A DNA stretch of 64,000 nucleotides, from NCBI GenBank assembly GCA_947626065.1, contig CANQQT010000002.1:76197-140196 (forward strand), in the 5' to 3' direction. The DNA comes from an uncultured Clostridia bacterium. GTDB taxonomy: Bacteria > Bacillota > Clostridia > Oscillospirales > CAG-272. Of the stretch, positions 18,167-58,896 are shown one piece after another; position 1 is the stretch's first letter; every line of letters starts with the position of its first letter. The position numbers were made by a program, and so were the translations under genes. The notes beneath the pieces were generated by a model that ran no database searches, was not told the origin of the DNA, and saw only the letters and a program-made list of their open reading frames with translations.

Positions 18167-18178
18167 ATTTCCGCCCCT

Positions 18179-34468: not shown

Positions 34469-34599
34469 TTTTCTATTCTCCCTGTCTAGGCCGCCCTTCC
34501 GGCGACCGGTATTTTTTCATGGTTTTTTTGGATCGAGCGGCCCTGACCGCTCCGGAAAAGAGGGAAGCGCTTCCCGCGTTTCCCTTTTCTCCCTCGTTT

Positions 34600-36786: not shown

Positions 36787-36816
36787 CCTTGTCCCTCCCG
36801 GAACATTTCCTACGCA

Positions 36817-36928
36817 AGCGGATTTCTCCACACGCGGATTTTTCCGCACGCGGATTTCTCCGCAAGCGGGTTTCTCCGCACGCGGATTTCTCCACACGCG
36901 GATTTCTCCGCACGCGGATTTCTCCGCC
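36817..36928. repeat. tandem repeat, 7 units of 16 bp (CGCGGATTTCTCCGCA)
   Basis: Units read directly at 36817, 36833, 36849, 36865, 36881, 36897 and 36913. The array starts 31 bp upstream of the TIR gene start and creates the false N-terminal extension of ORF 34600..36897. Confidence 0.9.
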
Positions 36929-36971
36929 TATTCGCGTCCATCCGCCGAAAAACGGGGAATGACCGCAAGCG

Positions 36972-37436
36972 TCATTCTTCCCTCATCAAAAGCGAAGCCG
37001 CCCTTTCGATATGCCTCTCTTCCAGCCCTCGGCCAATCAGCGGATCGGTTTTCACCGTATAAGGATCCAGCTCCTGCCAGCCGAACTTCTGGTCGTCGAA
37101 AATCACGAAGGCCTCCGTTTCGGGGTGCCTTGTCAGCCAGTCCTTGACTTCCTTGTATCTCTCCTTGCCGAGCTCCTTTGTTCTGTCCCAGAGACGGAGT
37201 CCCTTCCGGCGAAAGGTTTCCTCAAGCGCCCGACCGACCTCGTCGGTCTCCTTCCCCTCCGGATCCCAGTGGCGCCGCCACGTGCTTGTCAGCACAAGGT
37301 TGGCCCCCGTCCGATCCGTCAGCTTTTTCAGCAGCTCAAGCCGGCTTTCGTCGATGTTTCCGTCCTCCGATCCCCGCGAAGCGTCGTACCGACGGGAATT
37401 GAGAACGCCGTCGATATCCAGAAAAATGATTTTCAC
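36972..37436 (-). CDS. HAD-superfamily phosphatase (small, cap-less; polynucleotide-phosphatase-like)
   Basis: MKIIFLDIDGVLNS (DxDG nucleophile motif), LTSTWR (motif II) and VIFDD (motif IV); 154 aa. Confidence 0.75.
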   Translation of the reverse strand: MKIIFLDIDGVLNSRRYDASRGSEDGNIDESRLELLKKLTDRTGANLVLTSTWRRHWDPEGKETDEVGRALEETFRRKGLRLWDRTKELGKERYKEVKDWLTRHPETEAFVIFDDQKFGWQELDPYTVKTDPLIGRGLEERHIERAASLLMREE

Positions 37437-37552
37437 GTCTTGCTCACCACCTTTCCGGTCGGCAAAGGGACGGGGCCTTCCCCGTCCTTCGCCGATTCCA
37501 ATCGCCGCGCCTCCCGGCGCCGTTGTCTTTTCCTCTATATCCTTCCGGACAA

Positions 37553-38431
37553 TTACTTGTATTTAAACGTGAGCGTGAGCGTCCAAAGATTCTTGTCATA
37601 TCTACGCGAATAGGAATTCCCCAAAATTTTCCTGTTCGCTTTGGACGCCGCCCGCACAACCTCATAGCCGTCCTGTCCCACGGCAATCAGCTGATTAAAG
37701 GCTTTCTCGAAGACCTCCTTGCTTTTACACTTAAAGGTAACCTCCTTTTTCCCGGACTTTGCCGCCGCCTGCGCCATCACGTTGACAATATCGCCGGCGC
37801 CGGAGGACTCATAGGCAAAGATTCCTCTGTCGGGCTTGCTTTCCGGCTTGGTCACGTTCTTTCCGATCGCCAGATAGGTGATGCGCGGAGTCGAATTGTT
37901 GGGCATAACGGTGGAGGCATAGGAGGTCAGCTTGGAATTCAGCTCCCCCTCGGATACGATACCTCCCGAGGAGCTTTGAAATTCTCCGTCGGTAATCACC
38001 ACAAGCCAATACTGCGTATTGACGTCGGGATCCTGAACGGATGCCAGCTTGTTGAAGGCGATATCCAGAGCGTTATACGGGGTATTGCTCGCCGCAGTAT
38101 GCTTCCGGATGGAATCGACCGAGGACTGTATCGCCGAAGCGGACAAATCAATCCCGGGCGGGTTGAGGTTCGGATTCTTCTCCGCCTCGCTCATATAGGT
38201 GATATAGAGCTGATCGTCGCTGTTCAGCAATCCGCAGAAGGCTTGCATGGCATAGCTTGCATAGGCCCAGTTGGACGACCCGTAATTCTTCATGCTTTCG
38301 GAGTCGTCATAGACTACGGAAACAATTTTCCGGATATACAAAGAATCTGCGGCGACAGTCATCGGGATATACGCCGCAAAGACACTGCCAAAGAGAACGA
38401 CCGCTAGCAATGCCGCCAGTAGCCTTTTCAT
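37553..38431 (-). CDS. signal-anchored von Willebrand factor A (vWA) domain protein
   Basis: MKRLLAALLAVVLFGSVFAA signal/anchor, then the MIDAS motif VVYDDSESM (DxSxS) and VVITDGE. Start trimmed to ATG 38431 after GAAGGAGG. Confidence 0.8.
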   Translation of the reverse strand: MKRLLAALLAVVLFGSVFAAYIPMTVAADSLYIRKIVSVVYDDSESMKNYGSSNWAYASYAMQAFCGLLNSDDQLYITYMSEAEKNPNLNPPGIDLSASAIQSSVDSIRKHTAASNTPYNALDIAFNKLASVQDPDVNTQYWLVVITDGEFQSSSGGIVSEGELNSKLTSYASTVMPNNSTPRITYLAIGKNVTKPESKPDRGIFAYESSGAGDIVNVMAQAAAKSGKKEVTFKCKSKEVFEKAFNQLIAVGQDGYEVVRAASKANRKILGNSYSRRYDKNLWTLTLTFKYK

Positions 38432-38589
38432 CTTGTTCCTCCTTCGATGTCGCCTGTTTGCGGCGGCGCGGCCCTTTTCGGGGAAATTTCTGAACACCGG
38501 ATTCCTCCGGTTTCCCCATCCCGGGCCCTCTCCGCCCTGCTTTCGTATGACAGCAAGCCCCGGACGCGGTGCCGGAGCTTGCTGATAAG

Positions 38590-39066
38590 CTATTTACGAT
38601 TGGCTATGAAATCACCGACGGTGAGCACGCCCTTGCAAATCGCAAGAAATTTATCGTTAAAGGCGTCAACCGTCGCGCAGGAGCAATCGATCATATAATG
38701 GAACAGGCCGTCTCCGATTTTGCTTTCCCGGAAGGACGCCGTCATTCTGAAGACAATCGCTCCGGTAGAAATGTTATAGTCAAAGCTGCCGTCCGCGAGA
38801 CGGTTGGTGGCCACGCAGGTGGCAATCGCCAGATCCATGCGTTTGTCCTCCGGAACGGCAAAGGGGAGCTTGGAGAAGAGGCGAAGAAGCTGACGATCGG
38901 AATCTATGGCGAGGACAAACTCCATCGGGATATCCTCTCCCGAGACGCTAAACGTTACGACCAGATCTTCCCCGCGCTTCTGATACTTCCAATTTCTTCT
39001 GTCCAGTGCGGCACACAAGTCCCCATACACCGCTTGGGCGCGAGCCGTTTCCTTTGCATCAGCCAT
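38590..39066 (-). CDS. YbjN-domain protein (paralog b)
   Basis: 158 aa. The overall pattern (AVYGDLCAALDRRNWKYQK...FDYNISTGAIVFRMT) resembles the YbjN / T3SS-chaperone-like family. Paralogous to the upstream gene. Confidence 0.65.
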   Translation of the reverse strand: MADAKETARAQAVYGDLCAALDRRNWKYQKRGEDLVVTFSVSGEDIPMEFVLAIDSDRQLLRLFSKLPFAVPEDKRMDLAIATCVATNRLADGSFDYNISTGAIVFRMTASFRESKIGDGLFHYMIDCSCATVDAFNDKFLAICKGVLTVGDFIANRK

Positions 39067-39079
39067 GATCTTATCCTCC

Positions 39080-39559
39080 TCAGTTCTTTGTTTCGCTTTC
39101 GATAAATTTATCGATGCCTATCAAGCCCTTGCCAAGCATCAGGAATTTATCGTTGTAGTTATCAATCGTCTGGCAGGAGCATATCACCATATAAAAGACA
39201 AGCTCCTTGCTGATTTCGCTCTCAATGAAACTGCTGGTCAGGCGGAAATACATCTGCCCGTTGGTGACGTCATAATCAAAGCTACCGTCTACCATTTCGT
39301 CGTTGACCACGCTGACTGCGATGGCTACGTCGAGCCGCTTGTCTTCGGGAATGACAAAGGGAAGACGGGAAAGCAGAATAATCAGCTGCCGCCCGGCGTC
39401 AACCACAACGGAGAGCTCAATGGGGAGATCCTCGCCCTGCGCGCTGCAGTCGATGCGGAGCTTTTCCGAATCTTTCTTATAATGCCATTCGTTGTCGTCC
39501 AGTGCGTCACACAAAGTTTTATAAACCGTTTGCGCCCGTGCCATTTTTTCGTCTGCCAT
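39080..39559 (-). CDS. YbjN-domain protein (paralog a)
   Basis: 159 aa, clearly homologous to 38590..39066 (TVYKTLCDALDDNEWHYKK...FDYDVTNGQMYFRLT). The two genes are 13 bp apart. Confidence 0.65.
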   Translation of the reverse strand: MADEKMARAQTVYKTLCDALDDNEWHYKKDSEKLRIDCSAQGEDLPIELSVVVDAGRQLIILLSRLPFVIPEDKRLDVAIAVSVVNDEMVDGSFDYDVTNGQMYFRLTSSFIESEISKELVFYMVICSCQTIDNYNDKFLMLGKGLIGIDKFIESETKN

Positions 39560-39781
39560 ATCTTTTTTCTCCCTGATTCCATATTTTCATCGCTTGCGCG
39601 ATAAATTCTTCTCAGCGGCCGAGACAGCCAAGGAAAAATTGCCTTCACACCCGAATTCGTAATATGCGCAACGCCAAAAAACAGGTAAAAATTCATCGGT
39701 CGGCCTCAAACCGCCCCTTCAAGCCTCCCGTTTTAACGGAAAGAACCTCTTTTACCCGCTATTTTAAATTAAACATAGCGC

Positions 39782-39810
39782 ATTATAACACATTTTGAAA
39801 CAAAGGTCAA
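39782..39810 (-). promoter_or_regulatory. strong sigma70-type promoter (extended -10) heading the YbjN...RyR gene string
   Basis: Minus strand reads TTGACC (39810-39805), a 17-nt spacer ending TGT, then TATAAT (39787-39782). About 220 nt of leader precede ATG 39559. Confidence 0.65.
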
Positions 39811-40309: not shown

Positions 40310-43300
40310 TCAAATTGAATTGGCCGACATTACAACATCTATCAAATTTTGCTTTTCTCGTTCGTAGTCGTTTATCCATGCTGTAGGATATATTCTATAT
40401 ATATTCCACCCATATTTTTGAGTAAGAACCTGCTCCGTCAGCCTCGTATACTCCCGCACGCTGTCAAAATCCGTGCGTCGCGGGTCATCCACTATGATAC
40501 CCAGAGCATAGCAGCCGTCTTCGTTCGCTTTGCGTATACCTATATTAATTTTACATTCAGAGCGGCCAATTTCCGTATCGTAAGCGACACCGATTTCATC
40601 AAGAACCCTGCATATATCTGTGACGAACGGATTATATGTTTCCCCGCTAACGACTTTTTGGACTCTCGTGAACATCTGTGCGTACTCAAGAAAATTGCAT
40701 AGCATTTGCGCCCCTGCTTTGTTCTCGCTTGGAGCAGAACTGGTTTTCATTGCCATGTTTAACTCAGACGATTTCAATGTGGAGACAACGATCATTCTGT
40801 GCTTGGCTCGTGTCACAGCGACATTTATTCTTTTCATGCCCGAGAGCAAACGAATACGCCCCAGATAAGGAAGCGTAAACTTCCCATGGCTATCCGGGCT
40901 GTAGCATATACTAATTATAGTAATATCCCGTTCATCGCCTTGCACCGTATCTAAATTGCAAAATATAAGCGGTTCTTCTTCATGCATTTTTTCCCACTGC
41001 TCAATCGCTGCTTTTTTGTCGGCTCTTTGTTTAAAAACCTCCCAACGCGACTCTATCTCATACGCCTGTGCATTGCTAAAAGCCACCACGCCGATGGAGA
41101 ACGCCTTGCGTTCAGGATGAGTCATTTCTTCATATATCAGCTCCACAATCCGATCTGCTTCGCCGGAGTTTATGTGTGCCCCGTTCTTGCCTGCGACATA
41201 GCACGTGGAAGGCGTATATTGCACGGGCACATAGTCTATTCCGTCATTAGGATTTCTCTTTGCTGAAGGAAAACTAATGAGATTATACTCCATTTCCTTG
41301 TTAGAAAACGCTATCAATGCCTCATCGCAGCTCCTATAGTGCCATGCCAACGAAATGGATGCATCACCTAATGCTTTGTCAGCGGAGGCAAGCAAAGAGT
41401 TTTCAATATTTGCTTCTTCTTCAAAGTACTGCTCATCATCGTCCTGCATATTTTCTCCTGCTCTAAAGAAGTCGCAAGGAGGCAACTGTTTGCTATCACC
41501 CGCAATAATAATTTGCTTTCCTCTTACAATTGACGCAAGAGCATCCTCTGTAAAAATTTGCGAAGCCTCATCAAAAATAACCAAATCAAATTGCAAACTC
41601 ACATCAATATATTGACTCACATTCAAAGGCGACATCATAAAACAAGGTCTTATGTGTTTTATGTACTCCCAATTCTCCAGTATTGTTTGTTTGATTGAGT
41701 AGTTTGTCTTTGATTGAAGCTTGGGGTACTCGCCTTTTGCGCCATTAGCTTTGCCGGATGCCGCACGCCGCAAATACATATTAAGCGTTTCATACAGGCG
41801 TTTCGCTCCTGTATTCAGCATACGCTTATCTGCCTCGGCATAGCTTTCCATAAGCTTTTCATGTTCCGCTCTTGAGAAATCCCGTATACAATCAAGATGG
41901 TTTGTATCAATGAATTCCTTTACAATCTGTTGATAATAAGATCGAAATAAGCGCGCATTTGCTGTTTCGAAATCGCTTTCGTTACTGTCAATCAACTCAT
42001 CAAGAACAGATCTCCAGCCCGCCTGCTCTATTTTTTCCACTATCATCACCAAACGATACCAATCAGCAAGCATTGCTTGATGATGGATAATGGCCTCAGA
42101 TAAAGAAGTATATGCAAGAAAATACTTGCGCGGGGACTCCATAAAAGCGCCAAATTGATTTCCTAACGACTGTTCATCCGAAAGTGCTTTTGTAAGCAGC
42201 CCTTCTAACGTTTGCAAATGATTGATTGTCCCCGAATATTGTAACGGAGCGAAACGCAGAGACCAATCTGTAACACACCTCAAATCCAATATTTGATTAT
42301 TATGCTCGAATAGGATTGACAAGACAGCATTTAACGATTTGATCAAGTCGTCCCAATCGGCTTCGCTTTCCGGTTCATATCCTAATATCTCAAGGTCTTC
42401 ACTTTCTTGTCGTTCGTTACGCGATTTTAATTGCAAATACTCTCTATATTGTTCCAATTGTTTCAAAGCATTACTGGTTGATTTATAATTGTGTTTATGG
42501 GGAGGCGTATTAAAGCACGCAAGAACCGCTGCTTTCCATTCCTTGTACTTTTTACCATGCCTCATAAAAGCGCTCTGGTATTCTTCTGACTCAATTTTTG
42601 CCTGTTTTATGTCAAGAGCACAATATTTTATGTAATCAATCGCAGACGAATATTCTTTCCCTTCGTGGTTCTTTAATCTTGTTATTGTTTTTTTTCTTGC
42701 TTTCGCCAATTTTAAAATGTCATTTATTTTCCTTTCGCTGGGATTATTGAGAATTTCTCCCACAATTTTTTCCGACAGCTTCGGCATCTGTGACCAAAGG
42801 TGGAGCATCTTCTCACACACTTGCATATCAGAGAAGTGATATCCAACCTTCCAACCATCGTTCGCTAAATCAGAAACCACCTTTGTTATTGTGTCGTACA
42901 CGGCCTTATATTCAGAAGCAATTTTCAACAACGTGGAACCGGAATCCCCTTTACACCCATATAAGGGGTGCTTTCTATAGTCAAGCACACTGCCGCAGAC
43001 TTTAATAGCGGTATAATATTGACGAATCAAGTCACGTAACTCCGTGAACTCTACGCTGTCCTTGGGGATTTTCGGTGTTTCATTTAGCGCTTTGAATGCA
43101 GAAAATTGTGCCATATCCTGCAATAGCCTCAAATAGTTGCGATCCCCATACTCTCCGCGGATTTGCTCCATGAACTTTTTTATTTGCTCGTATCGATGTT
43201 CCTCATCCGCAATTAGTTGATCGTCATAACCCCCAACAGGAGTATAGCTCACCAAGCATCTATTAAGCTCCGCAACAAAAGGATTCCGGCTCACCGCTCC

Positions 43301-45109
43301 GCTTCGCTTTTTAAAAGAGCCAAAATCAAGAATAAAGTCAGTGAGCTTTTTGTCGCCCCCAACATTGCATTTTAACAAGTTGTCAATAATAACCGATCTT
43401 GCCGAGGTTTTTTCCGTAACAAACAAAACCGTTTTTCCCTCGCCAAGCGCAGAAGATATAATATTTGTTATTGTTTGACTTTTTCCGGATCCGGGAGGGC
43501 CCTGTAAGATAAACGACCTCCCCTCTTGTGAAGCTTTAATCACTTCTTCCTGTGATGAATCCGCATCTAACAACACATATTTTGTTTTATGCCTTTGTTG
43601 GAGAGAGGGAACAGAAATCTCAACATTTTCATCGCCACACAAGCGTCTGATAATCGGATGCCGCAAATATATGTCCTGATTGGTTTCAATATCATGTTGT
43701 AATTGCAGTTTTTGATAATGAAACAAGCCAATACCCAGTCCAGGATCAATTTCCCAGTCCTTGGTGATTTCAAAAATTCTATCCCCGCCGTTTTTGAAGG
43801 TTTGTTCAATTAAAGAGAAGTACACGCCTATGTTTTTTACGTCAAGCGATGGCAATACTATGGAACATGTTTGGGAATAGGCAGCAAGCATTTGTATCAG
43901 GGTCTTGTTTACCTCGAAAGTCGATTCTGCCGACGGATCCACCTCAAAATAATATTGTCCTTTTGCCTTATCTGTTCCCAAATTAACCGGGCATAATAAA
44001 ATCGGAGAATTATAAACTGTGCCGTTTGTATCTTTCCATTTTAAAAAACCGCACGCAAGATATAAAACATGCAGCCCGAAATTCCGTTCCATGTTTTTGG
44101 CTTTGTTTAAAATGGTTCTTGCGGCCTCGTTGGTACTCCCCTCGTTTACAACACTAACCAATTCATCTGAAGCATAACTTTTTAATGCACTCTGTGATAT
44201 AATTGGCGAAGATTCCAAATCAATGGCTTTTTTGCATTTTGGGCAGATAAGTGCCGACTTTTTCAACTCGTCTATCGTGAGTTTTTTTCCGCAAGAGCAG
44301 ATATACGCATCATTAGGCAAGCACATCAGTCTTTCCTTCAGCGGCATCATGCTCTTTCTATTATGAGTATTGCCCGCATCACATATCGGACACTCAGAAG
44401 CCAATTGCGTTTTTTTTGCGCCAAAATCATAGGACTGGAATTCCACGCGCCCACACAATTTGCATTTGTAAATCATCTGGGGGTGAAGCTTGCTCCACCC
44501 CGTGATATACATTCTTGAGTTTTTTTTGCTGATTTGTCGCATGGTCGTCAGAGTATCTCCGCTGAGCAACCCTATAGTCGCATTTTTTACAGGACGAAAA
44601 TGCACAAGTTGATTTGTACGCGAAAAATCGAGCAATCGCAAGCCAAATTTCTTTAATTGCTTTTTTTGCTGATCAGCCTCCTCCAGTACGGAGACCGTAC
44701 TATCAAAATTTATCAGTTCATTCTCATCAAAAGATTCACAGTCCGAATCGTCAATCGCCACGTTGAAAAAAACTGCTGCGGCCAAGCATATGGCAAAAAG
44801 ATAAGCCGAAAATCGATATTCATCTATCCGAACAGTAAACGAGAGCAAGCTTGCAAGCTCATATAACTCCCCACTGCCCCCTGTGAATTTTTGTTCCTGA
44901 ACAAACTTTGCCAATATTTTATAGGCAGGCGCCAATAGCTGCACCAATACTTTTCCATATCCGTATGACGTGCTTTGACGCAAATAGTCCCCAATAATTG
45001 AAGACGATCGATCATACCAATCCGGAACACTGACGTTCATTGTTCTTACTTTTTCACAATAAACTCGAAATTCTTTTTTATCCATTGCAAAAGCTTTTAG
45101 ACCTCGCAC
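40310..45109 (-). CDS. Zn-ribbon/DUF4011 + SF1 (Upf1/Dna2-like) helicase + C-terminal REase-like/DUF3320 protein
   Basis: LQGPPGSGKSQTI (Walker A), VIFDEASQ (Walker B), IIAGDSKQLPP, NVAVTRAKHRM. N-terminal CKLCG..CPICD and CSCG..CPKCK ribbons and LHVLYLACGFLKW (DUF4011-like). C-terminal GRSECKINIGI...ALGIIVDD...YGWNIYRIYPTAW (PD-(D/E)xK-like). 1599 aa. The start is uncertain (GTG 45109 or ATG 45085). Confidence 0.88.
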   Translation of the reverse strand: MRGLKAFAMDKKEFRVYCEKVRTMNVSVPDWYDRSSSIIGDYLRQSTSYGYGKVLVQLLAPAYKILAKFVQEQKFTGGSGELYELASLLSFTVRIDEYRFSAYLFAICLAAAVFFNVAIDDSDCESFDENELINFDSTVSVLEEADQQKKQLKKFGLRLLDFSRTNQLVHFRPVKNATIGLLSGDTLTTMRQISKKNSRMYITGWSKLHPQMIYKCKLCGRVEFQSYDFGAKKTQLASECPICDAGNTHNRKSMMPLKERLMCLPNDAYICSCGKKLTIDELKKSALICPKCKKAIDLESSPIISQSALKSYASDELVSVVNEGSTNEAARTILNKAKNMERNFGLHVLYLACGFLKWKDTNGTVYNSPILLCPVNLGTDKAKGQYYFEVDPSAESTFEVNKTLIQMLAAYSQTCSIVLPSLDVKNIGVYFSLIEQTFKNGGDRIFEITKDWEIDPGLGIGLFHYQKLQLQHDIETNQDIYLRHPIIRRLCGDENVEISVPSLQQRHKTKYVLLDADSSQEEVIKASQEGRSFILQGPPGSGKSQTITNIISSALGEGKTVLFVTEKTSARSVIIDNLLKCNVGGDKKLTDFILDFGSFKKRSGAVSRNPFVAELNRCLVSYTPVGGYDDQLIADEEHRYEQIKKFMEQIRGEYGDRNYLRLLQDMAQFSAFKALNETPKIPKDSVEFTELRDLIRQYYTAIKVCGSVLDYRKHPLYGCKGDSGSTLLKIASEYKAVYDTITKVVSDLANDGWKVGYHFSDMQVCEKMLHLWSQMPKLSEKIVGEILNNPSERKINDILKLAKARKKTITRLKNHEGKEYSSAIDYIKYCALDIKQAKIESEEYQSAFMRHGKKYKEWKAAVLACFNTPPHKHNYKSTSNALKQLEQYREYLQLKSRNERQESEDLEILGYEPESEADWDDLIKSLNAVLSILFEHNNQILDLRCVTDWSLRFAPLQYSGTINHLQTLEGLLTKALSDEQSLGNQFGAFMESPRKYFLAYTSLSEAIIHHQAMLADWYRLVMIVEKIEQAGWRSVLDELIDSNESDFETANARLFRSYYQQIVKEFIDTNHLDCIRDFSRAEHEKLMESYAEADKRMLNTGAKRLYETLNMYLRRAASGKANGAKGEYPKLQSKTNYSIKQTILENWEYIKHIRPCFMMSPLNVSQYIDVSLQFDLVIFDEASQIFTEDALASIVRGKQIIIAGDSKQLPPCDFFRAGENMQDDDEQYFEEEANIENSLLASADKALGDASISLAWHYRSCDEALIAFSNKEMEYNLISFPSAKRNPNDGIDYVPVQYTPSTCYVAGKNGAHINSGEADRIVELIYEEMTHPERKAFSIGVVAFSNAQAYEIESRWEVFKQRADKKAAIEQWEKMHEEEPLIFCNLDTVQGDERDITIISICYSPDSHGKFTLPYLGRIRLLSGMKRINVAVTRAKHRMIVVSTLKSSELNMAMKTSSAPSENKAGAQMLCNFLEYAQMFTRVQKVVSGETYNPFVTDICRVLDEIGVAYDTEIGRSECKINIGIRKANEDGCYALGIIVDDPRRTDFDSVREYTRLTEQVLTQKYGWNIYRIYPTAWINDYEREKQNLIDVVMSANSI

Positions 45110-45124
45110 TTAATAAAATGCCAA

Positions 45125-46405
45125 TTAACTTTTCGACCCTTTCGCCACAAAGTCGGGGGAACCGCCTATGCCAGTCTCGTCTTTCGATTGATGTGAACGG
45201 GAAAAGGAGGAAAAACCGTCTAGGCCAGTACCATTTTCAGATGAAGATGCCCGTGGTTTAAATTCAGAAAGTTTATCAAAATCAACAGGCGCCGGTTTTG
45301 GCTTTGGAGGAACGGGGGAGGTAGCGCCGCTCGTGTTACTCGTTCCTTGCCCTTTTTGGGATCCTCCGTTAAGAATGTCATCTAAAACGCTTACCCACTC
45401 ATCTGGAGTGGGTCTACTTTTAAATTCCGTGAGTGGATTCTTAAACGCCTGTCTAAACCGCTCCTTTAATCTGTTGTCAAGCCCATTCCAAATTTTTATA
45501 ACCGTGTTCAGCTCGCCACGCTTTTTTTGTTGTTTGGGCTTTGAAGCGTCGGCGTCTTTGTAAAGATCATCTATATTATTGCGACGATCCTTTTCATCAA
45601 AAATAAATACCGACCAAGCCTCATCTATATCATCTTCGTCCGCAAGTTCTTTAACGCCGAACATGTCTTGACATGCGGGGGAAGAATACATGATCTTTCC
45701 ATGATAGGGCGATGGCAAAAGGTTATTTATCAATATGCGGAAAATTAAATTTGCCAAAGCATATGCATCCGCATTCTTTCCTGCCTTCGCATATCCAAAA
45801 GCAACCTCCGGCGCCATAAAGAATCCGGTTCCTAACACAAACGAAAGCCCGTCTTGTTGTATTTCTTGATCGCTGGCAACGTTTTCGCAATCAACGACAT
45901 ACAGCCAACCGGTTTTGCTGTCAAACATAAAATTTCCCCAATTGATATCCGTATAACATCCGCCAAGTTTATTTATGATTTCAATAGACAGAGCGATCTG
46001 TCTTGCAAGCCCAAGCTTCTCCTCCAGAGGCATTTTCTGAATAATCCCGTTATTCTCGTTGATCATGTAATTCAGCGTTTGACCACCGGCAAGTTCCATG
46101 ATGTATAATGTTTCTCCTTTGTATGAACACGAGGAAAGAGGAAATGCATGATTAATATTATACCCTCTTGCCAGATTATCCGCTCTTTGGCTGGTGTTCT
46201 CATCGATGAGTATACGTATATTTTTGCGCTTCATCTCTCTCCTTCCTTCGTTTTCATCAACAAGAACCTTCATGGCGTAGCATTGATTATCGGTCAAATT
46301 TTTGACTTTATAAACCGCTCCTTGCCCACCCGCGCCAATCGGCGAAATTATTTCATAGGTAATTTTATTCTCAAAGGTTATCCGGGTTCCCGCTGCAAAG
46401 TCCAT
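45125..46405 (-). CDS. Ser/Thr protein kinase with low-complexity C-terminal tail
   Basis: GAGGQGAVYKV (G-loop), YAMKV (VAIK-like), YTDINWGNFMF (catalytic loop D..N), FMAPEV (APE). AGAGGTG ribosome-binding site. Confidence 0.88.
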   Translation of the reverse strand: MDFAAGTRITFENKITYEIISPIGAGGQGAVYKVKNLTDNQCYAMKVLVDENEGRREMKRKNIRILIDENTSQRADNLARGYNINHAFPLSSCSYKGETLYIMELAGGQTLNYMINENNGIIQKMPLEEKLGLARQIALSIEIINKLGGCYTDINWGNFMFDSKTGWLYVVDCENVASDQEIQQDGLSFVLGTGFFMAPEVAFGYAKAGKNADAYALANLIFRILINNLLPSPYHGKIMYSSPACQDMFGVKELADEDDIDEAWSVFIFDEKDRRNNIDDLYKDADASKPKQQKKRGELNTVIKIWNGLDNRLKERFRQAFKNPLTEFKSRPTPDEWVSVLDDILNGGSQKGQGTSNTSGATSPVPPKPKPAPVDFDKLSEFKPRASSSENGTGLDGFSSFSRSHQSKDETGIGGSPDFVAKGSKS

Positions 46406-46435
46406 AACATAGCACCTCTTTTTTCAAAATTATTT

Positions 46436-48139
46436 TTAACGGATATGCACATACGCAATTGAACTATCGTCGCCACTGCCAAAATTTGTTTCGTTATAAT
46501 CGGAGCATTTTTGAGCTATTTGTTCGAGCTTTTGGCATCGCTCATCAAACGAAAGCTCCGAAATATCTTGAACGAACGCGTCAACAGACCCCACCGTTTC
46601 CCCTACAGCATTTGTTACTCCATCGGAAGAAATAAAGATATCACTCACTTCATGAAAACCAAAGAACGATAGCTGCAAGGCGGTCGAATCATTTTTTAAA
46701 TGCGGCACGGTCAACACTTCATGTCTCAGTACGCCGGAGATTCCGTCGTTCAGAAGGAATCCTCCGCTTGCCCCCGTATTTGTTGCGCGCCGCTTTTTAA
46801 CATAAAAACTACCGTCTCCAAGGGCACCGCAGACAATAAACTTTGCGCACCCGAAAGCAAACTGCAAGGTTGTGGAAAACGCGCTCACATCGACATCTTC
46901 AGTACGCTTAAATTCCTGCGAATTGCGAATTGCTTCTTCCCATTCTTTGTAGAAATCATTGACCAACAAAAATTTTATGTAATACATCAAATCCGCATAT
47001 TCGCTATCCGAAATTTTTTTATAGCCGAATGCTCTCTTCTTGTCAACAATTAATTTATGATTCGTTAAAAACGTTTCGATGCACTTTGACAAACATAGAG
47101 TCGCTTCTTTTGACCCTAATGCAGAATGAATACAGCTTCCCACGCCATCCGCGACAGCAACAAACCAATTATCCTCATCGTATTTTTTTATTAAGGAATA
47201 ATCTTCGCACCCGTTGTGCCCGGGCTTATCCAATCTTCCTTCATAAGATACGGCAAACAATTGAGCGCGATCGCAGGTTTCCTTTCGTGAAGCTTCACGT
47301 ACAAGAAAACTTTTGCTGCGGAATTTTTTCAAAGTATCTTCCCAATAACCAATGTTGAAAGATCCGTAATTTTTAGTAAATACAAGCCATATGAGTTCAA
47401 AAATTTTAGCGCTGCCGACGCCGTTCAAATTTCCCATCGCCGCTTGAATGTTCTCTCTTTTTTGTTCGCGTAAAATTTTATCGACCGTTTTTTCAAGTTC
47501 CGATGCAACGCCTCTTCCGCGAATGTCTTTGACAACCCTTATCATGTTTCCGGCTTCGCATTCAAATCTTCCCATTGGCGTTTTATCATAATCAGCAAAT
47601 GCATTTTTCCACACGTCCTGTGGATATTTGCCGCCGGACATGATATAGAAAAGCAAATATGCCAAGAGATAATTATTGCTATCCGACACGAAGGAAGGGA
47701 TATCTTGATATTTAAATTCCTTCATAAATGGTAGCTTTTCATAAAAAATTTGGTTGTTTAACTGCGGAAAAATATTTTCTTCGTTCTCATTCAAATAATC
47801 GCATACCCGCAAAGCCAAGATTATCCGCTGATCATAACCCGTTTCCTCCAAACAAACATCTGTTTCCCTCTCTGAAATATCGGCCGCATCGCTTTTCTCC
47901 TCATCGCAAAGTCCCGCTTGCGCAGACGCCTCCCCTTCGCGAAGCTTGATCTCTTGCAAAACAGCAACGTCGCTTTTCAATGGTACTTCTACTTTTGAAG
48001 CTTTTTGTTCTTCTTTATGCATATTAACCGGTGCTTTCTCTGTGTTTTCCATTCTATATACCTCATTAGAAGCTGACAATAAAAGGGTTATGAGAAGAGC
48101 CATTATGCCGAAAAGCATCTTCCAACTGCCCCAACACAC
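46436..48139 (-). CDS. PP2C-family Ser/Thr phosphatase with ~290-aa unknown N-terminal region
   Basis: CEDYSL, VAVADGVGS, SSDGVTN and GSGDDSSIA are PP2C metal-site motifs in the C-terminal half. The start is ambiguous: TTG 48139, ATG 48118 (gives a hydrophobic anchor MLFGIMALLITLLL), or ATG 48052 (best ribosome-binding site, GAGGT). Confidence 0.85.
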   Translation of the reverse strand: MCWGSWKMLFGIMALLITLLLSASNEVYRMENTEKAPVNMHKEEQKASKVEVPLKSDVAVLQEIKLREGEASAQAGLCDEEKSDAADISERETDVCLEETGYDQRIILALRVCDYLNENEENIFPQLNNQIFYEKLPFMKEFKYQDIPSFVSDSNNYLLAYLLFYIMSGGKYPQDVWKNAFADYDKTPMGRFECEAGNMIRVVKDIRGRGVASELEKTVDKILREQKRENIQAAMGNLNGVGSAKIFELIWLVFTKNYGSFNIGYWEDTLKKFRSKSFLVREASRKETCDRAQLFAVSYEGRLDKPGHNGCEDYSLIKKYDEDNWFVAVADGVGSCIHSALGSKEATLCLSKCIETFLTNHKLIVDKKRAFGYKKISDSEYADLMYYIKFLLVNDFYKEWEEAIRNSQEFKRTEDVDVSAFSTTLQFAFGCAKFIVCGALGDGSFYVKKRRATNTGASGGFLLNDGISGVLRHEVLTVPHLKNDSTALQLSFFGFHEVSDIFISSDGVTNAVGETVGSVDAFVQDISELSFDERCQKLEQIAQKCSDYNETNFGSGDDSSIAYVHIR

Positions 48140-48245
48140 AACTGTATGATGATAAATCTATCAAAAACAGGTAGCTCGAACGCAAACCCACTATAAAGAA
48201 CAGGGAGAATCGCAGAACGACTCTCCCCACTCCACGTTAAATTAC

Positions 48246-48893
48246 TTAGCCAACCGAAAGATTAAGCGTAGCCGATTTGAGAATATTGATAAAATTCTCC
48301 GTATATTGATCAGAGCAATCATAGTACGCCGAAATACCTTTGCCCTCCATTTTAGCCGAAACTTTCCCAAATTTTTTAAGAGAATTACGGCCTTCTTCGT
48401 TGACATTCATTCCGATAGCGACGCGAAGAGCACGGCGGAAGGCTTCCACTTCTTTGCTACCGCCTTTTACAGCGCATTCCATAACCTCATCAAATGTCGG
48501 ATTGGTACCGTTGGGCTCACCGTCCGAAATTAAAATGATGGCAGGAGGTAAGGCGTCGGGATCTTTATCCCCTCGGGCACCACCTTGAATATCCTGGATA
48601 ACAGCCTGAATTGCCGCCCCGGTAGGAGTCCCACCAGCAAATGACTCCGCGGTTAAAGGTGCCCACTGTTGGGACAAGCTTTCCAAATCAGTCTCCGGAA
48701 TAATCACCTTTATGGTATCGGCACCGGCAAAGCCCAAAACCTCAAACTTGATCTTCATATTGGCGTCTTTATCGCGGATGATATCTGGTACGACCTTTTT
48801 CATAACCTCCTCCATGGCGGTATTAACTGCATCACCCCGCTTTCCATACATCGAGCCCGAGCAATCGATCAAAAAATACACTGTCTTGTTCAT
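48246..48893 (-). CDS. TerY-like vWA protein, paralog 1
   Basis: MNKTVYFLIDCSGSMYGKRGDAVN (DxSxS MIDAS) and ILISDGEPNG; 215 aa, the size and layout of TerY. Confidence 0.88.
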   Translation of the reverse strand: MNKTVYFLIDCSGSMYGKRGDAVNTAMEEVMKKVVPDIIRDKDANMKIKFEVLGFAGADTIKVIIPETDLESLSQQWAPLTAESFAGGTPTGAAIQAVIQDIQGGARGDKDPDALPPAIILISDGEPNGTNPTFDEVMECAVKGGSKEVEAFRRALRVAIGMNVNEEGRNSLKKFGKVSAKMEGKGISAYYDCSDQYTENFINILKSATLNLSVG

Positions 48894-48955
48894 AATTTTT
48901 TCTCCTTAAGATTTTAGGCGTCTCCGCCTTAATTTACAATTTAATTTTTAAACGA
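48853..48955. repeat. 103-bp perfect direct repeat, copy A (first 41 nt of vWA paralog 1 plus 62 nt of 5' leader)
   Basis: Read base by base and identical to 49747-49849: gagcccgagcaatcgatcaaaaaatacactgtcttgttcataattttttctccttaagattttaggcgtctccgccttaatttacaatttaatttttaaacga. Confidence 0.9.
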
Positions 48956-49036
48956 TGCAAAAATGCATCTTAATCGCAAGCACCCGTTTACCAGTCCGTA
49001 AAACTCGGATGAAACGAAGGCGGATCTATGATTTCG

Positions 49037-49139
49037 CACATTGAGTCACGAAGCGCATCCGATTGCGCAGGGAGATCGTAGTATGCCGAAAGTCCAAAAT
49101 TCTCCATTGCTTTGGGAATCCTTCCATTTTTTAAGAGAG
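49037..49139 (-). pseudogene. degenerate duplicate of the 3' coding end of a TerY-like vWA gene
   Basis: cacattgagtcacgaagcgcatccgattgcgcagggagatcgtagtatgccgaaag...ttttttaagagag aligns with 49156-49278 inside paralog 2. The paralog 2 stop codon (49131-49133) falls inside this duplicate. Confidence 0.6.
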
Positions 49140-49787
49140 CGGAAGTATAACTCGGCACATTAACTCAAAAAGCGCATCTGATTCAAAAAGCGCATCTGAT
49201 TGCGCGGGAAAATCATAGTATGCCGAAAAGCCACATTCCTCCATTACTTTTGAAATCCTTCCAAATTTTTTAAGAGAGTTGTAGCCTTTTTCGTCGACAT
49301 TTATTCCAATAGCAACACGGTCTGCGCGGCGGAAGCTAATCACTTCTTTGATACTGCCTTTTACTGCGCATTCCATAACCTCGTCATATGTTGGATTGCT
49401 GCCAGTGTGTTCCCCGGACGAAATCAAAATAATGAAAGGAGGTAAGGCGTCGGGGTCTATATCTCCGTGCAAACCGCATTCAATATCCTCGATAACCGCT
49501 TGAATTGCCCGTCCGGTAGGAGCCCCACCGGCAAATGACTCATCAGACAAACGGTACCATCTTTGAGGGAAGCTGTCCAAATCAAATTTCGGAATTATCA
49601 CCTTTACGGAATCGGCGCCAGCAAAGCCCAAGACCACAAACTGAATCTTCAAATCGGAAAGTTTCTCCGCTAGGATTTCCGGCACGACCGTTCTCATGAC
49701 CTCTTCCATTAGGGCATTAACCACATCTCCGCGCTTCCCGCGCATTGAGCCCGAGCAATCGATCAAAAAATACACTGTCTTGTTCAT
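49131..49787 (-). CDS. TerY-like vWA protein, paralog 2 (remodelled C-terminus)
   Basis: MNKTVYFLIDCSGSMRGKRGDVVN and ILISSGEHTG. The C-terminus SDALFESDALFELMCRVILPLS arises from a 16-bp internal duplication and read-through into duplicated sequence. Confidence 0.82.
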   Translation of the reverse strand: MNKTVYFLIDCSGSMRGKRGDVVNALMEEVMRTVVPEILAEKLSDLKIQFVVLGFAGADSVKVIIPKFDLDSFPQRWYRLSDESFAGGAPTGRAIQAVIEDIECGLHGDIDPDALPPFIILISSGEHTGSNPTYDEVMECAVKGSIKEVISFRRADRVAIGINVDEKGYNSLKKFGRISKVMEECGFSAYYDFPAQSDALFESDALFELMCRVILPLS

Positions 49788-49849
49788 AATTTTTTCTCCT
49801 TAAGATTTTAGGCGTCTCCGCCTTAATTTACAATTTAATTTTTAAACGA
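49747..49849. repeat. 103-bp perfect direct repeat, copy B (start of vWA paralog 2 plus leader)
   Basis: Identical to 48853-48955. Confidence 0.9.
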
Positions 49850-49897
49850 CAGCAAAAACCTCTTATTCACGATCCTCAGTCTGCCAACACGTCAAAC

Positions 49898-50551
49898 TCA
49901 ATACGGCGAAATGGGGCAAATGAGAGGCACTATGATGTGTGCCATCGATTCAAAAAGCGCCTCTGATTGCGCGGGAAAATCATAGTATGCCGAAAAGCCA
50001 CGTTCCTCCATTACTTTTGAAAGCCTTCCAAATTTCTTAAGAGAATTACGACCTTCTTCGCTGACATTCATTCCGATAGCAACACGAATAGCTCTGCGGA
50101 ATTGGGGTACTTCTTTGCTACCACCTTTTACAGCGCATTCCATAACCTCATCATATGTTGGATTGGTACCGGTGGGTTCCCCATCCGAAATTAAGATAAT
50201 GACAGGAGGTAAGGCGTCGGGGTCTATATCCCCGCGCACGCCGCCTTCAATATCCTGGATAACAGCCTGAATTGCCGCCCCGGTAGGAGCACCGCCGACA
50301 AACACATCGCCGGATATAGGCTTCCACAGCAAGGGGAACTCTTCCACAGAAGCCCGGACTTGCTCCTTTATGGTTCTGTCACCGGAAAAACCCCACACTT
50401 TAAACTTGACATTCAAATCGGGATTTTTCTGTTCAAGGATTTCCGGCACAACTCTTTTCACGACTCCATCCATTAGGGCATTAACCGCTTCTCCACGCCC
50501 CCCGCACATTGCGTCAGAGCAATCAATCAAAAAATAAACGGGTTTGTTCAT
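49898..50551 (-). CDS. TerY-like vWA protein, paralog 3
   Basis: MNKPVYFLIDCSDAMCGGRGEAVN (MIDAS variant DxSxA) and ILISDGEPTG; 217 aa. AAGGAGG ribosome-binding site. Confidence 0.85.
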   Translation of the reverse strand: MNKPVYFLIDCSDAMCGGRGEAVNALMDGVVKRVVPEILEQKNPDLNVKFKVWGFSGDRTIKEQVRASVEEFPLLWKPISGDVFVGGAPTGAAIQAVIQDIEGGVRGDIDPDALPPVIILISDGEPTGTNPTYDEVMECAVKGGSKEVPQFRRAIRVAIGMNVSEEGRNSLKKFGRLSKVMEERGFSAYYDFPAQSEALFESMAHIIVPLICPISPY

Positions 50552-50571
50552 AAGGCTTGTCCTCCTTTGTA

Positions 50572-50615
50572 TTTTGCATGGTAGGGTACTTCTGTCTGAA
50601 TTCTACCATGCAAAA
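50572..50615 (-). promoter_or_regulatory. 13-bp perfect inverted repeat (hairpin or operator) in the 5' leader of vWA paralog 3
   Basis: ttttgcatggtag (50572-50584) and ctaccatgcaaaa (50603-50615) are exact reverse complements separated by 18 nt. They lie between the promoter and the ribosome-binding site. Confidence 0.6.
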
Positions 50616-50670
50616 CGGATTTTAAGGTTCTTATTGGCGCAATCTGTCCATTTATTTGCTTCTGTAGCTC

Positions 50671-50699
50671 ATTATAACACATTAAAATCAAAAAATCAA
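50671..50699 (-). promoter_or_regulatory. strong sigma70-type promoter (extended -10) for the vWA-PP2C-kinase-helicase genes
   Basis: Minus strand reads TTGATT (50699-50694), a 17-nt spacer ending TGT, then TATAAT (50676-50671). Confidence 0.6.
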
Positions 50700-50774
50700 G
50701 CACTTATTGCGCTTTTTTTAAAAAATTTGCAATCTTTTAGGATCTATTGTCTGTTTTGGACATCTTTTGGCGGA

Positions 50775-50962
50775 TATCCCCCCCGTAACACCGGCCAACA
50801 AGCTACGGGGCGAGAACCCAAAGATGGGGCCCTCGGCACGGGAGCTCTTGCAGTATCGCTCTCTCCAGTTGCCGAAGGCCCCGCCAAACGTTGTGTGCGT
50901 CGCCAATCGCTCCCCCTTATTCTGTGCTTCTCCAAGGCATGGAACTCGTCGGGGGGGGGATA
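50775..50962. ncRNA. candidate structured RNA: GC-rich ~190-nt element closed by a 10-bp helix (strand undetermined)
   Basis: TATCCCCCCC (50775-50784) pairs with GGGGGGGATA (50953-50962). An internal 12-bp helix joins 50826-50837 and 50871-50882 (one mismatch) and encloses the hairpin 50840-50845/50858-50863. A further pairing joins 50794-50803 and 50926-50938. No protein-like ORF is present. Confidence 0.3.
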
Positions 50963-51269
50963 AAGTGTGCGCTAAAATCAGGCATTCGAATACTATTTTC
51001 TGCAAATTTTTATCATGGAATCTACTTTTTTGGACCGTCTGCCAGAGGACTTCCGGCGTGTGCATTTCTCAGAACGAGACATTCGCCCGCCGTGCCATTG
51101 ATCGCTTTCGGATGGAGCTGACCATCCTTGTCCGCTTGACACTTGGGGAATTCATCGCATTCATAATGCGCGACGGATATCTCGCTCAGAAAGCCTTTAA
51201 GCAAAAATTGACCGCCGGTAGACGCCTCCCGGCGGTACATAACCGCCATCTGCAAACGGCCATTGCACT

Positions 51270-52304
51270 TTACGGGATTTGATTTTCCAGATACTCAAAG
51301 CATGTTTTCCATTCAGAATATGTGGTGCGGCATCCTATATCCTCATGCAATCCATTTACAAAAGTCTGAATCATGCATTCTTGGATCTGTATAGGAAGTG
51401 CGTTCCATTTTTGGGTCTGAATGAAATAGTCTTCATTTTTTTCAACGGCGTATACGGCATTTCGTTTGTCCGTAGGATGAAAGGCAAACAGCGCCTCAGA
51501 GCCGTATATTATCGGCGCAGCGTCGTCGACCGTCAAATCATTGTCGGTCATATAGCGCTCGGTGGCGGGACCGTCCATGGGATAGGAACCGATGAAAAGC
51601 CGGAAGAAAAAGGTTGCAATGGAAAAATAATCGGACAACCGGTTTTGTTTCCCCGTTATGTAAACCTCCGGAGCAGTATAACCTGTTTTCCCGAGGAGAA
51701 AAAGGGGCTCATCATACCTCACAACACAGATATCATCGGCGTCAACGATAAAAAAGTCTCCGTCGTCCGGGTTAATATATACCTTGTCCTCGTTGAGGTC
51801 ATTGTAGCGCAAGCCCGCCAGGTTAAGCACCTCAAATAACTCCGCAAAATTTTTGCAAAACTTATACAAAATCTTCGCGTCCGGATAATCCTCAGGATGA
51901 TTGATGATCTGTCTCGCCGGCTTATATTTGTCCGAGTCGATTTTATTCATGATGTAGCCAAATCCGCCGCTATTAAGCTCAACCAAATCAAGCGGAAGGG
52001 CATAAAAATGCAGCCAAAGCTTTTCATTCATGTGATGGTTTTCAAGCGAGTCGATCCACACCATGATATTTCTAATATTTCTTTTAATGGTTTCATGACG
52101 GACGCGAAGGTCCGGCGTTGTCACATATTCCCTGAACCAATACGAGTTGCTGTCGCCGTCTTTCGTGGCGTGGAACATTGCGGCAGCGCCGCCGGCGTCC
52201 CGCTTTTCGCCGATAACGTATTCTTTTCCGGAGACCGATCGAACACGGCGGCCGATCATTTGGCCTGATTCGTCAAGTACAGGTGTAAAATCTTCAGGTT
52301 TCAT
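51270..52304 (-). CDS. divergent protein-kinase-fold protein
   Basis: LRYNDLNEDKVYI (catalytic-loop-like D-x4-N region), FIVDADDI (DFG-like) and GYTAPEVY (APE motif); 344 aa. Confidence 0.75.
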   Translation of the reverse strand: MKPEDFTPVLDESGQMIGRRVRSVSGKEYVIGEKRDAGGAAAMFHATKDGDSNSYWFREYVTTPDLRVRHETIKRNIRNIMVWIDSLENHHMNEKLWLHFYALPLDLVELNSGGFGYIMNKIDSDKYKPARQIINHPEDYPDAKILYKFCKNFAELFEVLNLAGLRYNDLNEDKVYINPDDGDFFIVDADDICVVRYDEPLFLLGKTGYTAPEVYITGKQNRLSDYFSIATFFFRLFIGSYPMDGPATERYMTDNDLTVDDAAPIIYGSEALFAFHPTDKRNAVYAVEKNEDYFIQTQKWNALPIQIQECMIQTFVNGLHEDIGCRTTYSEWKTCFEYLENQIP

Positions 52305-52336
52305 ACGATTCCTTCTTCCTTTTTTATTTTAAAATG

Positions 52337-52365
52337 ATTATATCATATAAAAAAGCAAGCCGCAA
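52337..52365 (-). promoter_or_regulatory. sigma70-type promoter (extended -10) upstream of the kinase-like gene
   Basis: Minus strand reads TTGCGG (52365-52360), a 17-nt spacer ending TGA, then TATAAT (52342-52337). Confidence 0.5.
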
Positions 52366-57870: not shown

Positions 57871-57879
57871 AACCTTATC

Positions 57880-58889: not shown

Positions 58890-58896
58890 AATTGTG

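Follow-up and report, generated by a model that had tools for sequence, protein, structure and literature searches.

A rare four-gene cassette in Clostridia joins a TerY-P-like triad to a DUF4011 helicase whose nuclease domain looks degenerate

The subject of this report is a group of genes in a 64,000-nt stretch of DNA (the window) from an uncultured Clostridia bacterium (GTDB Oscillospirales; CAG-272; assembly GCA_947626065.1, contig CANQQT010000002.1). These genes are predicted to encode three proteins with a von Willebrand factor A (vWA) domain, a PP2C phosphatase, a Hanks-type Ser/Thr kinase and a giant DUF4011 helicase of superfamily 1 (SF1), and all of the open reading frames (ORFs) named in an initial annotation of the window are present on the minus strand at the positions shown in Table 1. 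We refer to the vWA, PP2C and kinase genes as the "triad" and to the triad followed by the helicase gene as the "cassette". Taken together, the comparisons reported here portray the cassette as a rare, horizontally mobile and minimal unit that joins a triad of the TerY-P type to a helicase, with the twist that the helicase appears to be nuclease-dead.

Table 1. Cassette genes and adjoining features, in the direction of transcription (positions in the window)
Feature	Position	Strand	Remarks
Possible ORF344 promoter	52337-52365	-	TTGCGG-17-TGaTATAAT
ORF344	51270-52304	-	Kinase-like; homologs are Pkinase proteins
Intergenic gap	50700-51269	-	ORF344 terminator, then GC-rich stretch
Promoter-like site	50671-50699	-	TTGATT-17-TATAAT with upstream TG, ~120 nt before vWA1
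vWA1	49898-50551	-	217 aa, 61% identical to vWA3; VWA domain
vWA2	49131-49787	-	218 aa, 64% identical to vWA3; VWA domain
vWA3	48246-48893	-	215 aa, TerY-like; VWA 9.6e-11; complete metal ion-dependent adhesion site (MIDAS: DxSxS, GGT, ISDG)
PP2C phosphatase	46436-48139	-	567 aa as maximal ORF; PP2C_2 1.2e-16 at residues 310-529
Hanks-type Ser/Thr kinase	45125-46405	-	426 aa; Pkinase 1.6e-17
DUF4011/UPF1-like SF1 helicase	40310-45109	-	1599 aa as maximal ORF; Pfam and profile matches

The block that had been judged AT-rich by eye is so by computation, with a GC content of 0.429 within 39.6-53.0 kb as against 0.536 outside. The contrast is stronger at third codon positions, where the GC content (GC3) has values of 0.41-0.48 in the genes for the helicase, the kinase, the PP2C and all three vWA proteins and of 0.64-0.71 in the genes on both flanks, and the composition profile proposed with the initial annotation accordingly displays a clear GC3 discontinuity at the cassette. 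The closest relative among the loci that we compared (L081; loci are designated by L numbers) has a helicase gene 84% identical to that of the window at the DNA level, in a cassette with a GC content of 0.38. Because of this likeness and of the GC3 discontinuity, we regard the cassette as compositionally foreign DNA, presumably acquired horizontally from a low-GC donor of the Clostridia type. The boundaries of the low-GC block show no tRNA gene and no flanking direct repeat longer than 11 bp, no mobility genes were seen among the neighbouring ORFs scanned, and an empty-site comparison found no related locus with shared flanks. The promoter-like site upstream of vWA1, already pointed out in the initial annotation, is a good match in a promoter scan and is likely to be the promoter of the four-gene cassette operon.

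Related loci were sampled from two sides. A scan for the helicase, taking one genome per species, yielded eight loci of its own subfamily (L001-L008, of which L002 is cut off upstream) and 72 distant DUF4011 helicases; four further helicase-based look-ups added L091-L094, and the loci were searched by tblastn with the proteins of the window. Of the 11 helicase-sampled loci, 8 have the triad directly upstream of the helicase (L001, L005-L008, L091, L092 and L094), and in L001 and L005-L008 one vWA gene, the PP2C gene and the kinase gene stand immediately before it in the order seen in the window. Loci sampled through the PP2C (L081-L090) carry vWA, PP2C, kinase and helicase genes in all ten cases, that of the most distant PP2C homolog included. 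Wherever a triad is present, the kinase ortholog directly precedes the helicase, the PP2C-kinase-helicase gaps range from -1 to 39 bp across the sampled cassettes, and the order and strand of the four genes are conserved in more than 15 distinct loci, whose helicases show 34-82% identity. The contexts of these cassettes are unrelated to each other and include an arginine operon, pectate-lyase and metal-ATPase genes, conjugative elements (TraG, resolvase, zeta-toxin) and GGDEF/EAL genes; that of the window cassette is an island of TIR and AAA-protease genes. The neighbourhood survey, which had been named beforehand as a test that could refute the proposed helicase-triad association, thus found that association from the helicase side and from the PP2C side alike.

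The linkage appears to be old as well as recurrent. A neighbor-joining tree of the helicases has triad-linked members on its deepest branches, with the three that lack a triad nested on separate branches, which is why the linkage looks ancestral, with independent losses. Pairwise identities of the triad proteins follow those of the helicase (Spearman coefficients of 0.58 for vWA, 0.73 for PP2C and 0.69 for kinase; Mantel p <= 0.002), and the proteins encoded by L081 and L082 are 82% (helicase), 80% (vWA), 68% (PP2C) and 61% (kinase) identical to those of the window. Triad genes were found in none of the 72 distant DUF4011 loci, save for a kinase and a vWA gene in L069. The coupling of the helicase to vWA, PP2C and kinase genes is therefore upheld as a conserved, compact and co-diverging cassette that occurs in different surroundings, and is more than proximity within an island. 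Sequence comparison strongly supports the view that the four genes constitute one evolutionary unit, a rare family inherited and transferred together.

The same observations bear on the notion that a TerY-P triad and a single-gene helicase of the Hhe/PDC-S37 type merely reside as two independent neighbours in a defence island. In PADLOC the family of the helicase is indeed modelled as a candidate system of one gene (PDC-S37), the window is rich in defence genes, lone helicases of the subfamily exist, and one locus (L089) suggests a swap of modules. We nevertheless find this notion very improbable in view of more than 15 differently flanked loci in which the genes keep one order, one strand and a tight spacing, the presence of the helicase at every PP2C-sampled locus, the ancestral position of the linkage on the helicase tree, the significant co-divergence, and the lack of a triad, L069 aside, around the distant helicases. 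In L089 the triad is close to that of L081/L082 (vWA 92%, kinase 67% and PP2C 57% identical) and the helicase is only 47% identical, a pattern suggestive of recombination having exchanged triad and helicase modules among cassettes. In L069 (6785-8558) the kinase and vWA genes are upstream of a gene for a 1852-aa helicase, and the kinase is matched equally well by the cassette kinase and by the ORF344 product (~1e-20); this locus may represent an independent association of a helicase with triad genes.

The helicase itself has the hallmarks of the UPF1-like enzymes. Because its homologs start at residue 9 of the maximal ORF, from which their alignment also runs, translation probably begins at Met9 (45085), and the gap to the kinase gene, earlier given as 15 bp, is then probably 39 bp. 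A helical N-terminal domain is followed by DUF4011 (residues 158-408) with two inserted Zn-ribbons, Walker A (537-544), an insert of ~630 aa that separates it from Walker B (1180-81), and a C-terminal MTES_1575 domain (1495-1591) with a restriction endonuclease (REase)-like fold; AAA_11 and AAA_12 are the other Pfam matches. Pfam recovered the DUF4011, SF1 helicase, REase-like, Pkinase, PP2C and VWA domains that the initial annotation had assigned to the cassette proteins, but it did not detect DUF3320, and the helicase ends directly after the REase-like domain. The motifs GPPGSGKS, DEASQ, GDxxQLPP, QGDERD and VAxTRAR and the eight Zn-ribbon Cys residues are invariant in the subfamily alignment, and the best sequence matches in the PDB are SMUBP-2, SEN1, UPF1 and DNA2. 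Among profiles, the helicase is matched by PADLOC PDC-S37 (4e-200) and Hhe (8e-91) and by NCBIfam ProA (2e-198; 662 bits, cut-off 1500) and Hhe (1e-133; 447 bits, cut-off 2000). A predicted model of its N-terminal 520 aa (pLDDT, the predicted local distance difference test score, 87.5) found no match among PDB folds better than E = 0.27.

The subfamily consists of proteins of ~1,585 aa that are 33-82% identical over their full length and derive mostly from metagenome-assembled genomes of gut and rumen Clostridia. Its specific N-terminal 320 aa were found in 30 of 1.84 billion representative clusters, every time in this architecture, and a plasmid collection contained no helicase of the subfamily, only distant DUF3320/DUF4011 proteins.

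The C-terminal domain of this subfamily has changed in a consistent way. When 58 subfamily members were compared with 73 distant DUF4011 helicases, the latter were seen to keep the PD-(D/E)xK nuclease signature (D, ExD, RDRD): the motif-I Asp is present in 70, the motif-II Glu in 66 and the motif-II Asp in all of the 73, with R-D-R-D in 68-71. In the subfamily, by contrast, the motif-II Glu is absent from all 58 members (I, V or L in 56), the motif-I position is N in 28, S in 17 and D in 13 (Asn in the window helicase), and R-D-R-D is replaced by R-E-Y-[A/T/S]. The Pfam score for MTES_1575, 47.8 bits in the window helicase versus 116-132 bits in the distant relatives P0068 and P0062, fits the loss of the catalytic signature. 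Neither Pfam nor PADLOC nor NCBIfam detected another nuclease or toxin domain in the cassette. The subfamily that is ancestrally tied to the triad is the same one whose nuclease domain looks degenerate or dead, and the loss of the PD-(D/E)xK signature across the subfamily makes it more likely that the helicase acts as a sensor or translocase than as a nuclease effector.

The initial annotation had left the helicase-nuclease open as either effector or nucleic-acid sensor; the nuclease-effector half fares poorly against a signature lost in 58 of 58 members, and the sensor half is the one that we prefer. The contending explanation, that the protein is an effector degrading phage DNA in the manner of Hhe, with the triad as an upstream switch that licenses it by phosphorylation, draws on the same evidence for helicase-triad linkage. 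It can also point to the kinship of the helicase with Hhe and PDC-S37, to an REase-fold domain that is kept, with several invariant residues, in all members, and to the literature on the CoCoNuT systems (described below), which treats TerY-P as accessory to helicase/nuclease cores (PMC11090510). We think it doubtful, given that the subfamily has lost the D, ExD and RDRD signature kept by the 73 distant helicases and that the cassette has no other detected nuclease domain to take over the task; it might still hold if the active site has migrated.

The kinase of the cassette retains the G-loop, the Lys, the Asp..Asn pair, the DFG-equivalent Asp and the APE motif in alignments with its homologs. 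It ends in a disordered, low-complexity tail rich in S, P and K and is without the beta-rich C-terminal domain (~75 aa) of most of its orthologs, a domain for which Pfam gave no match. The PP2C protein probably starts at Met30 and is then 538 aa in length, as annotated at NCBI; in this form a disordered N-terminus is followed by an all-helical domain (residues ~67-245) and then by the PP2C domain, whose metal-binding Asp residues are invariant in the alignment. An AlphaFold model (pLDDT 83.7, predicted TM-score 0.80) places a canonical PP2C fold after the helical domain. Foldseek searches with the whole-protein model returned PPM1K, PPM1B and Stp1 at ~1e-8, matches dominated by the PP2C fold, and gave no fold assignment for the helical domain. 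A candidate Rosetta-stone fusion in the proteins P0071 and P0072 was rejected, since the partial Pkinase match is sub-threshold (24 bits against a cut-off of 31.7) and unrelated to the cassette kinase.

The three vWA genes set the window apart from its relatives. Tandem triplication had been described correctly, but the DxSxA variant had been assigned to the third paralog and two intact MIDAS had been claimed. Only vWA3 proves to have a complete one; the DxSxA copy is the promoter-proximal gene (49898-50551), which in addition has GGA for GGT. The vWA2 MIDAS reads GGA and ISSG (Thr to Ala and Asp to Ser). The C-terminal tails of vWA1 and vWA2 have both diverged, that of vWA2 with an internal SDALFE duplication, and it is vWA3 that is the best match to the single vWA proteins of orthologous cassettes every time (46-80% identity). 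The DNA copies are 75-83% identical and spaced at 767 and 894 bp. The 237-bp spacer that separates vWA2 from vWA3 contains a fragment of a vWA 3' end (49020-49131), which reads as a scar of the tandem duplications.

Three vWA genes were seen in no related locus, and the closest relatives, L081 and L082, carry one. Expansion by paralogs does recur in the family: a second, divergent vWA gene is present 3' of the helicase in L001, L083-86 and L088, and in the L091 cassette (1749-20878) there are two genes for vWA proteins, and kinase paralogs of 343 and 499 aa are encoded in tandem. L091 also contains, on the opposite strand, a second DUF4011 helicase gene with an AAA ATPase gene, together with a fragment 56% identical to residues 1431-1598 of the helicase. 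The "expanded" features first described for the window cannot be taken as a family trait, since its closest relatives all have one vWA gene and no ORF344-type gene, and the two extra vWA copies have a degenerate MIDAS; these copies are probably locus-specific add-ons that are non-essential, or at most modulatory.

The combination of vWA (TerY), PP2C and kinase genes was reportedly defined as a triad by Anantharaman, Iyer and Aravind in 2012, and the genes of the window had been assigned to it from the outset. In favor of that assignment, the window has VWA, PP2C_2 and Pkinase domains in consecutive genes of one strand, an arrangement that more than 15 related loci share; membership in the TerY-P system of Gao, on the other hand, is not shown by profiles. 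The PADLOC TerY model matches the three vWA proteins weakly (E = 9.8e-5, 7e-3 and 2.3e-3, over just ~45-60 residues), the PP2C is without a match among the PADLOC models, and the kinase matches no TerY-P kinase model, its PADLOC matches being the PD-T4-6 and mad6 models. At the level of architecture the TerY-P label stands, and the best plasmid relatives of vWA3 (27% identity) lie in loci of the form vWA...vWA-PP2C-kinase. The cassette resembles Gao-type TerY-P in that adjacent genes encode a ~215-aa vWA protein, a PP2C and a kinase of the Hanks type, but its kinase is without a C-terminal OB-fold and it has the helicase as a conserved fourth gene.

It had further been stated that the helicase partner is foreign to the described triads. 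This is too strong, since the CoCoNuT systems of types II and III-A combine the triad with UPF1-like helicases, nucleases and duplicated vWA genes (PMC11090510). The nearest described architecture to the cassette is that of these two types, in which the TerY-P triad is in an operon with the UPF1-like SF1 helicase CnuH (Bell et al., eLife 2024; PMC11090510); CnuH, too, has a large insert after Walker A (PMC11090510), and the triad is frequent there but not invariable, with vWA genes duplicated in some operons (PMC11090510). The likeness thus extends to a triad and a UPF1-like SF1 helicase with a large post-Walker-A insert in one operon. The cassette differs, however, in having, within ~10 kb, neither the McrB/McrC (CnuB/CnuC) pair nor a separate CnuE HEPN nuclease: no McrB/McrC or AAA_5-GTPase gene was found in the window between 27.9 and 56 kb or in L081-L094, and no effector of the winged helix-turn-helix-HEPN type (CnuE) was found in any cassette. 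The N-terminus of its helicase is made up of DUF4011 and Zn-ribbons, where CoCoNuT helicases have an SmpB-like OB domain and a RelE-like domain. TerY-P kinases of the Gao type have an OB-fold fused to the C-terminus, and those of the CoCoNuT type a Zn-ribbon (PMC11090510); the cassette kinase is without the latter as well. CoCoNuT type III-B has a Vsr-like PD-(D/E)xK nuclease fused to the helicase and never has TerY-P (PMC11090510); the cassette shares the fusion of a PD-(D/E)xK domain, but that domain is degenerate and the triad is present.

Stand-alone systems provide a second set of comparisons. Like Hhe, PDC-S37 and ProA, the cassette helicase is a giant protein that unites DUF4011 and a UPF1-like SF1 helicase with an REase fold (MTES_1575) at the C-terminus, but it scores far below the equivalog cut-offs for Hhe and ProA, has the 320-aa N-terminus of its own subfamily, is without DUF3320 and has lost the catalytic signature; those systems are stand-alone, whereas the subfamily helicase is ancestrally linked to the triad. 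Stk2, PD-T4-6 and mad6 of MADS place a Hanks-type kinase in a defence context and offer a mechanistic analogy for a kinase as the output, although they are single-gene or otherwise composed systems. A search of the literature available to us found no paper that combines DUF4011, a kinase and PP2C, and nothing relevant on PDC-S37 or ProA.

We consider it reasonably probable that the four-gene operon was acquired as one unit and serves as an anti-phage or anti-mobile-element system in which the helicase is a sensor or translocase coupled to a kinase/PP2C switch. In such a system the helicase, with its ATPase motifs intact, its two Zn-ribbons and its degenerate PD-(D/E)xK fold, would engage nucleic acid. 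The kinase and PP2C would form a reversible phosphorylation switch physically tied to it and possibly providing the output, and the vWA protein could, through its MIDAS, hold on to a phosphorylated or acidic stretch of a partner in the role of a metal-dependent latch or adaptor. An encounter of the helicase with foreign nucleic acid or a replication intermediate might release or activate the kinase, which could then phosphorylate the helicase/vWA complex or else, in the manner of Stk2-type defence, proteins of the host or the phage. Phage replication would then be blocked or growth arrested, and PP2C would hold the system off and reset it. A fuller version assigns every part, with the nuclease-dead DUF4011 helicase turned sensor, the kinase as the output on host or phage targets, PP2C as the reset and the MIDAS-bearing vWA as the latch between sensor and kinase, and sees in them a distinct phospho-signalling form of immunity; we put it forward tentatively, as the less probable elaboration.

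The profile families closest to the helicase are anti-phage ones (PDC-S37 and Hhe in PADLOC, "anti-phage ProA" and Hhe in NCBIfam), but several considerations weigh against the proposal. The suggested defence role is based on context and on homology to candidate or validated families, all of them matched below curated cut-offs, and the cassettes of L087, L090, L092 and L094 are situated among housekeeping genes. Helicases without a triad are found in L003 and L004 (among housekeeping genes) and in L093, so the helicase may work or persist alone. The motif-II Asp and one Glu are still invariant in the REase-like domain of the subfamily, and PD-(D/E)xK active sites can migrate, so that the loss of canonical residues makes inactivity likely but leaves it unproven. 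The sequence, finally, would fit a helicase that is a sensor and one that is a regulated effector alike.

The housekeeping surroundings of some cassettes might equally be expected of a stress or DNA-damage module, in which the phospho-switch would control a helicase with which the cell repairs or processes DNA or RNA of its own. A nuclease-dead helicase with no obvious toxic activity would suit such a module, and the 2012 hypothesis for Ter-associated triads, in the form cited in PMC4978471, includes the repair of DNA damage induced by xenobiotics. We judge this explanation unlikely, because the cassette is rare and patchily distributed, shows horizontal transfer and foreign composition, has undergone repeated loss and duplication, and occurs in conjugative elements and defence islands, with anti-phage families as its nearest profile matches. 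As regards related systems, the same source attributes the link of TerY-P to helicase/endonuclease modules to Anantharaman et al. 2012 (PMC4978471), and PMC11090510 and bioRxiv 10.1101/2024.10.10.617714 cite Gao et al. 2020 as having reported TerY-P and Hhe to be anti-phage.

With defence by a sensor-type helicase as the preferred reading, the cassette might repay further study on several counts. It joins the triad and the helicase in a minimal, portable unit of four genes, without the many extra parts of CoCoNuT, and could serve as a tractable model for the signal and the substrates of a vWA/PP2C/kinase switch and for its communication with a helicase. To our knowledge, TerY-P triads as well as helicases of the Hhe type appear among the listed anti-phage systems, neither with an established mechanism. 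The apparent loss of the nuclease throughout the family leads to the prediction that defence would require ATPase and kinase activity and not REase-like catalysis, and suggests a route by which effector domains might turn into sensors. If the sensor-kinase proposal is true, this would be the first case in which the loss of an Hhe-like nuclease coincides with the gain of a kinase/phosphatase module. On the practical side, calls of the helicase as a single-gene PDC-S37 system overlook its three partner genes.

Upstream of the cassette lies ORF344, which had been counted as a component of it. Its product is indeed kinase-like, but it is C-terminally truncated and substituted and comes from a different lineage of triads, and its gene has a possible promoter and a terminator of its own. 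Its homologs are 480-520 aa in length (best identity 57%), and it covers residues 1-333 of these but neither their Zn-ribbon nor their C-terminal beta domain. In an alignment of 18 kinases it is the only one with Arg for the beta3 Lys and Lys for the catalytic-loop Asn. The GC3 of ORF344 (0.53) is unlike that of the cassette genes, and a separate gene of this type was found in no related cassette locus. The lineage to which it belongs is represented by L095 (7284-15722) and L096 (2148-10586), where vWA, PP2C and kinase proteins of 267, 585 and 479 aa are encoded. The cassettes of this lineage further hold genes for two unknown proteins (438 and 450 aa) and an Hsp70-like ATPase, their kinase has the Zn-ribbon and beta domain, and a Tox-HNH-HHH gene is upstream in both, with a TraG-like gene in L095. 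The ORF344 product is probably an orphan, truncated pseudokinase remnant and not a working part of the cassette.

The promoter claimed for ORF344 has a perfect extended -10 element, but its -35 element matches at 3 of 6 positions and falls below the scan threshold. An intrinsic-terminator hairpin (ACCGCCGG..CCGGCGGT followed by a T-run, ~51237-51205) closes the gene, and the RNA fold of the 85-nt segment is -30 kcal/mol. Between ORF344 and the cassette promoter, in the 718-bp gap, there is a unique GC-rich stretch (~50740-51210; GC ~0.51-0.57). It matched neither Rfam nor Pfam, nor any repeat or other locus, and held no remnants of an ORF344-type cassette.

On its other side the cassette adjoins a minus-strand block of host-like GC content (30086-39559). 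It encodes a 1192-aa protein with AAA_2, AAA and Peptidase_M41 domains (PADLOC IetA 5e-45, DolB 7e-27), an ADP-ribosylglycohydrolase, a 765-aa TIR-TPR protein (PDC-S66 2e-10), HAD_SAK_2, a 314-aa VWA_2 protein and two YbjN proteins, and may be a separate conflict system. Across the cassette loci, neighbouring genes include those for TIR proteins, IetA-like AAA proteins, ADP-ribosylglycohydrolase, zeta-toxin, resolvase and TraG, and a PHROGs search returned nothing phage-specific. Relatives of the 1192-aa protein are encoded near DUF4011 helicases in L023, L044, L052, L053, L076, L091 and L092 (tblastn 1e-17 to 1e-24), which could reflect generic AAA similarity or a real association.

The YbjN gene pair of this block (38590-39559, minus strand) is 50-55% identical to pairs at L083 8028-8991, L088 8033-8999 and L001 2-142; in those loci the pair is directly upstream of the cassette vWA gene, and in the window it is downstream of the helicase gene. 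In L083-86 and L088 a gene for a 660-aa AAA+AAA_lid_6 ATPase precedes the pair. We considered the window pair as part of the insert and rejected this, given its host-like GC3 (0.64) and a strong promoter of its own. The minus-strand region before it (39560-39810) has a promoter-like TTGACC-17-TGTTATAAT (11/12), a leader of ~220 nt and a terminator-like hairpin (39713-39697); the leader had no Rfam match and could be attenuator- or riboswitch-like.

Elsewhere in the window, three more patches of low GC content, at 2001-4000 (0.42-0.47), 20001-22000 (0.43-0.47) and 57001-59000 (0.35-0.40), suggest other foreign inserts. A related but differently built locus (L097) was found on the IncF plasmid NZ_CP056712.1 of Enterobacter asburiae (157173-166129), where genes for a vWA protein, a hypothetical protein, an AAA ATPase, a DUF1887 CARF protein, a vWA protein, a PP2C and an "LPS kinase" follow one another; such loci, which amount to a triad with an insertion between two vWA genes, are widespread on Klebsiella and Enterobacter plasmids.

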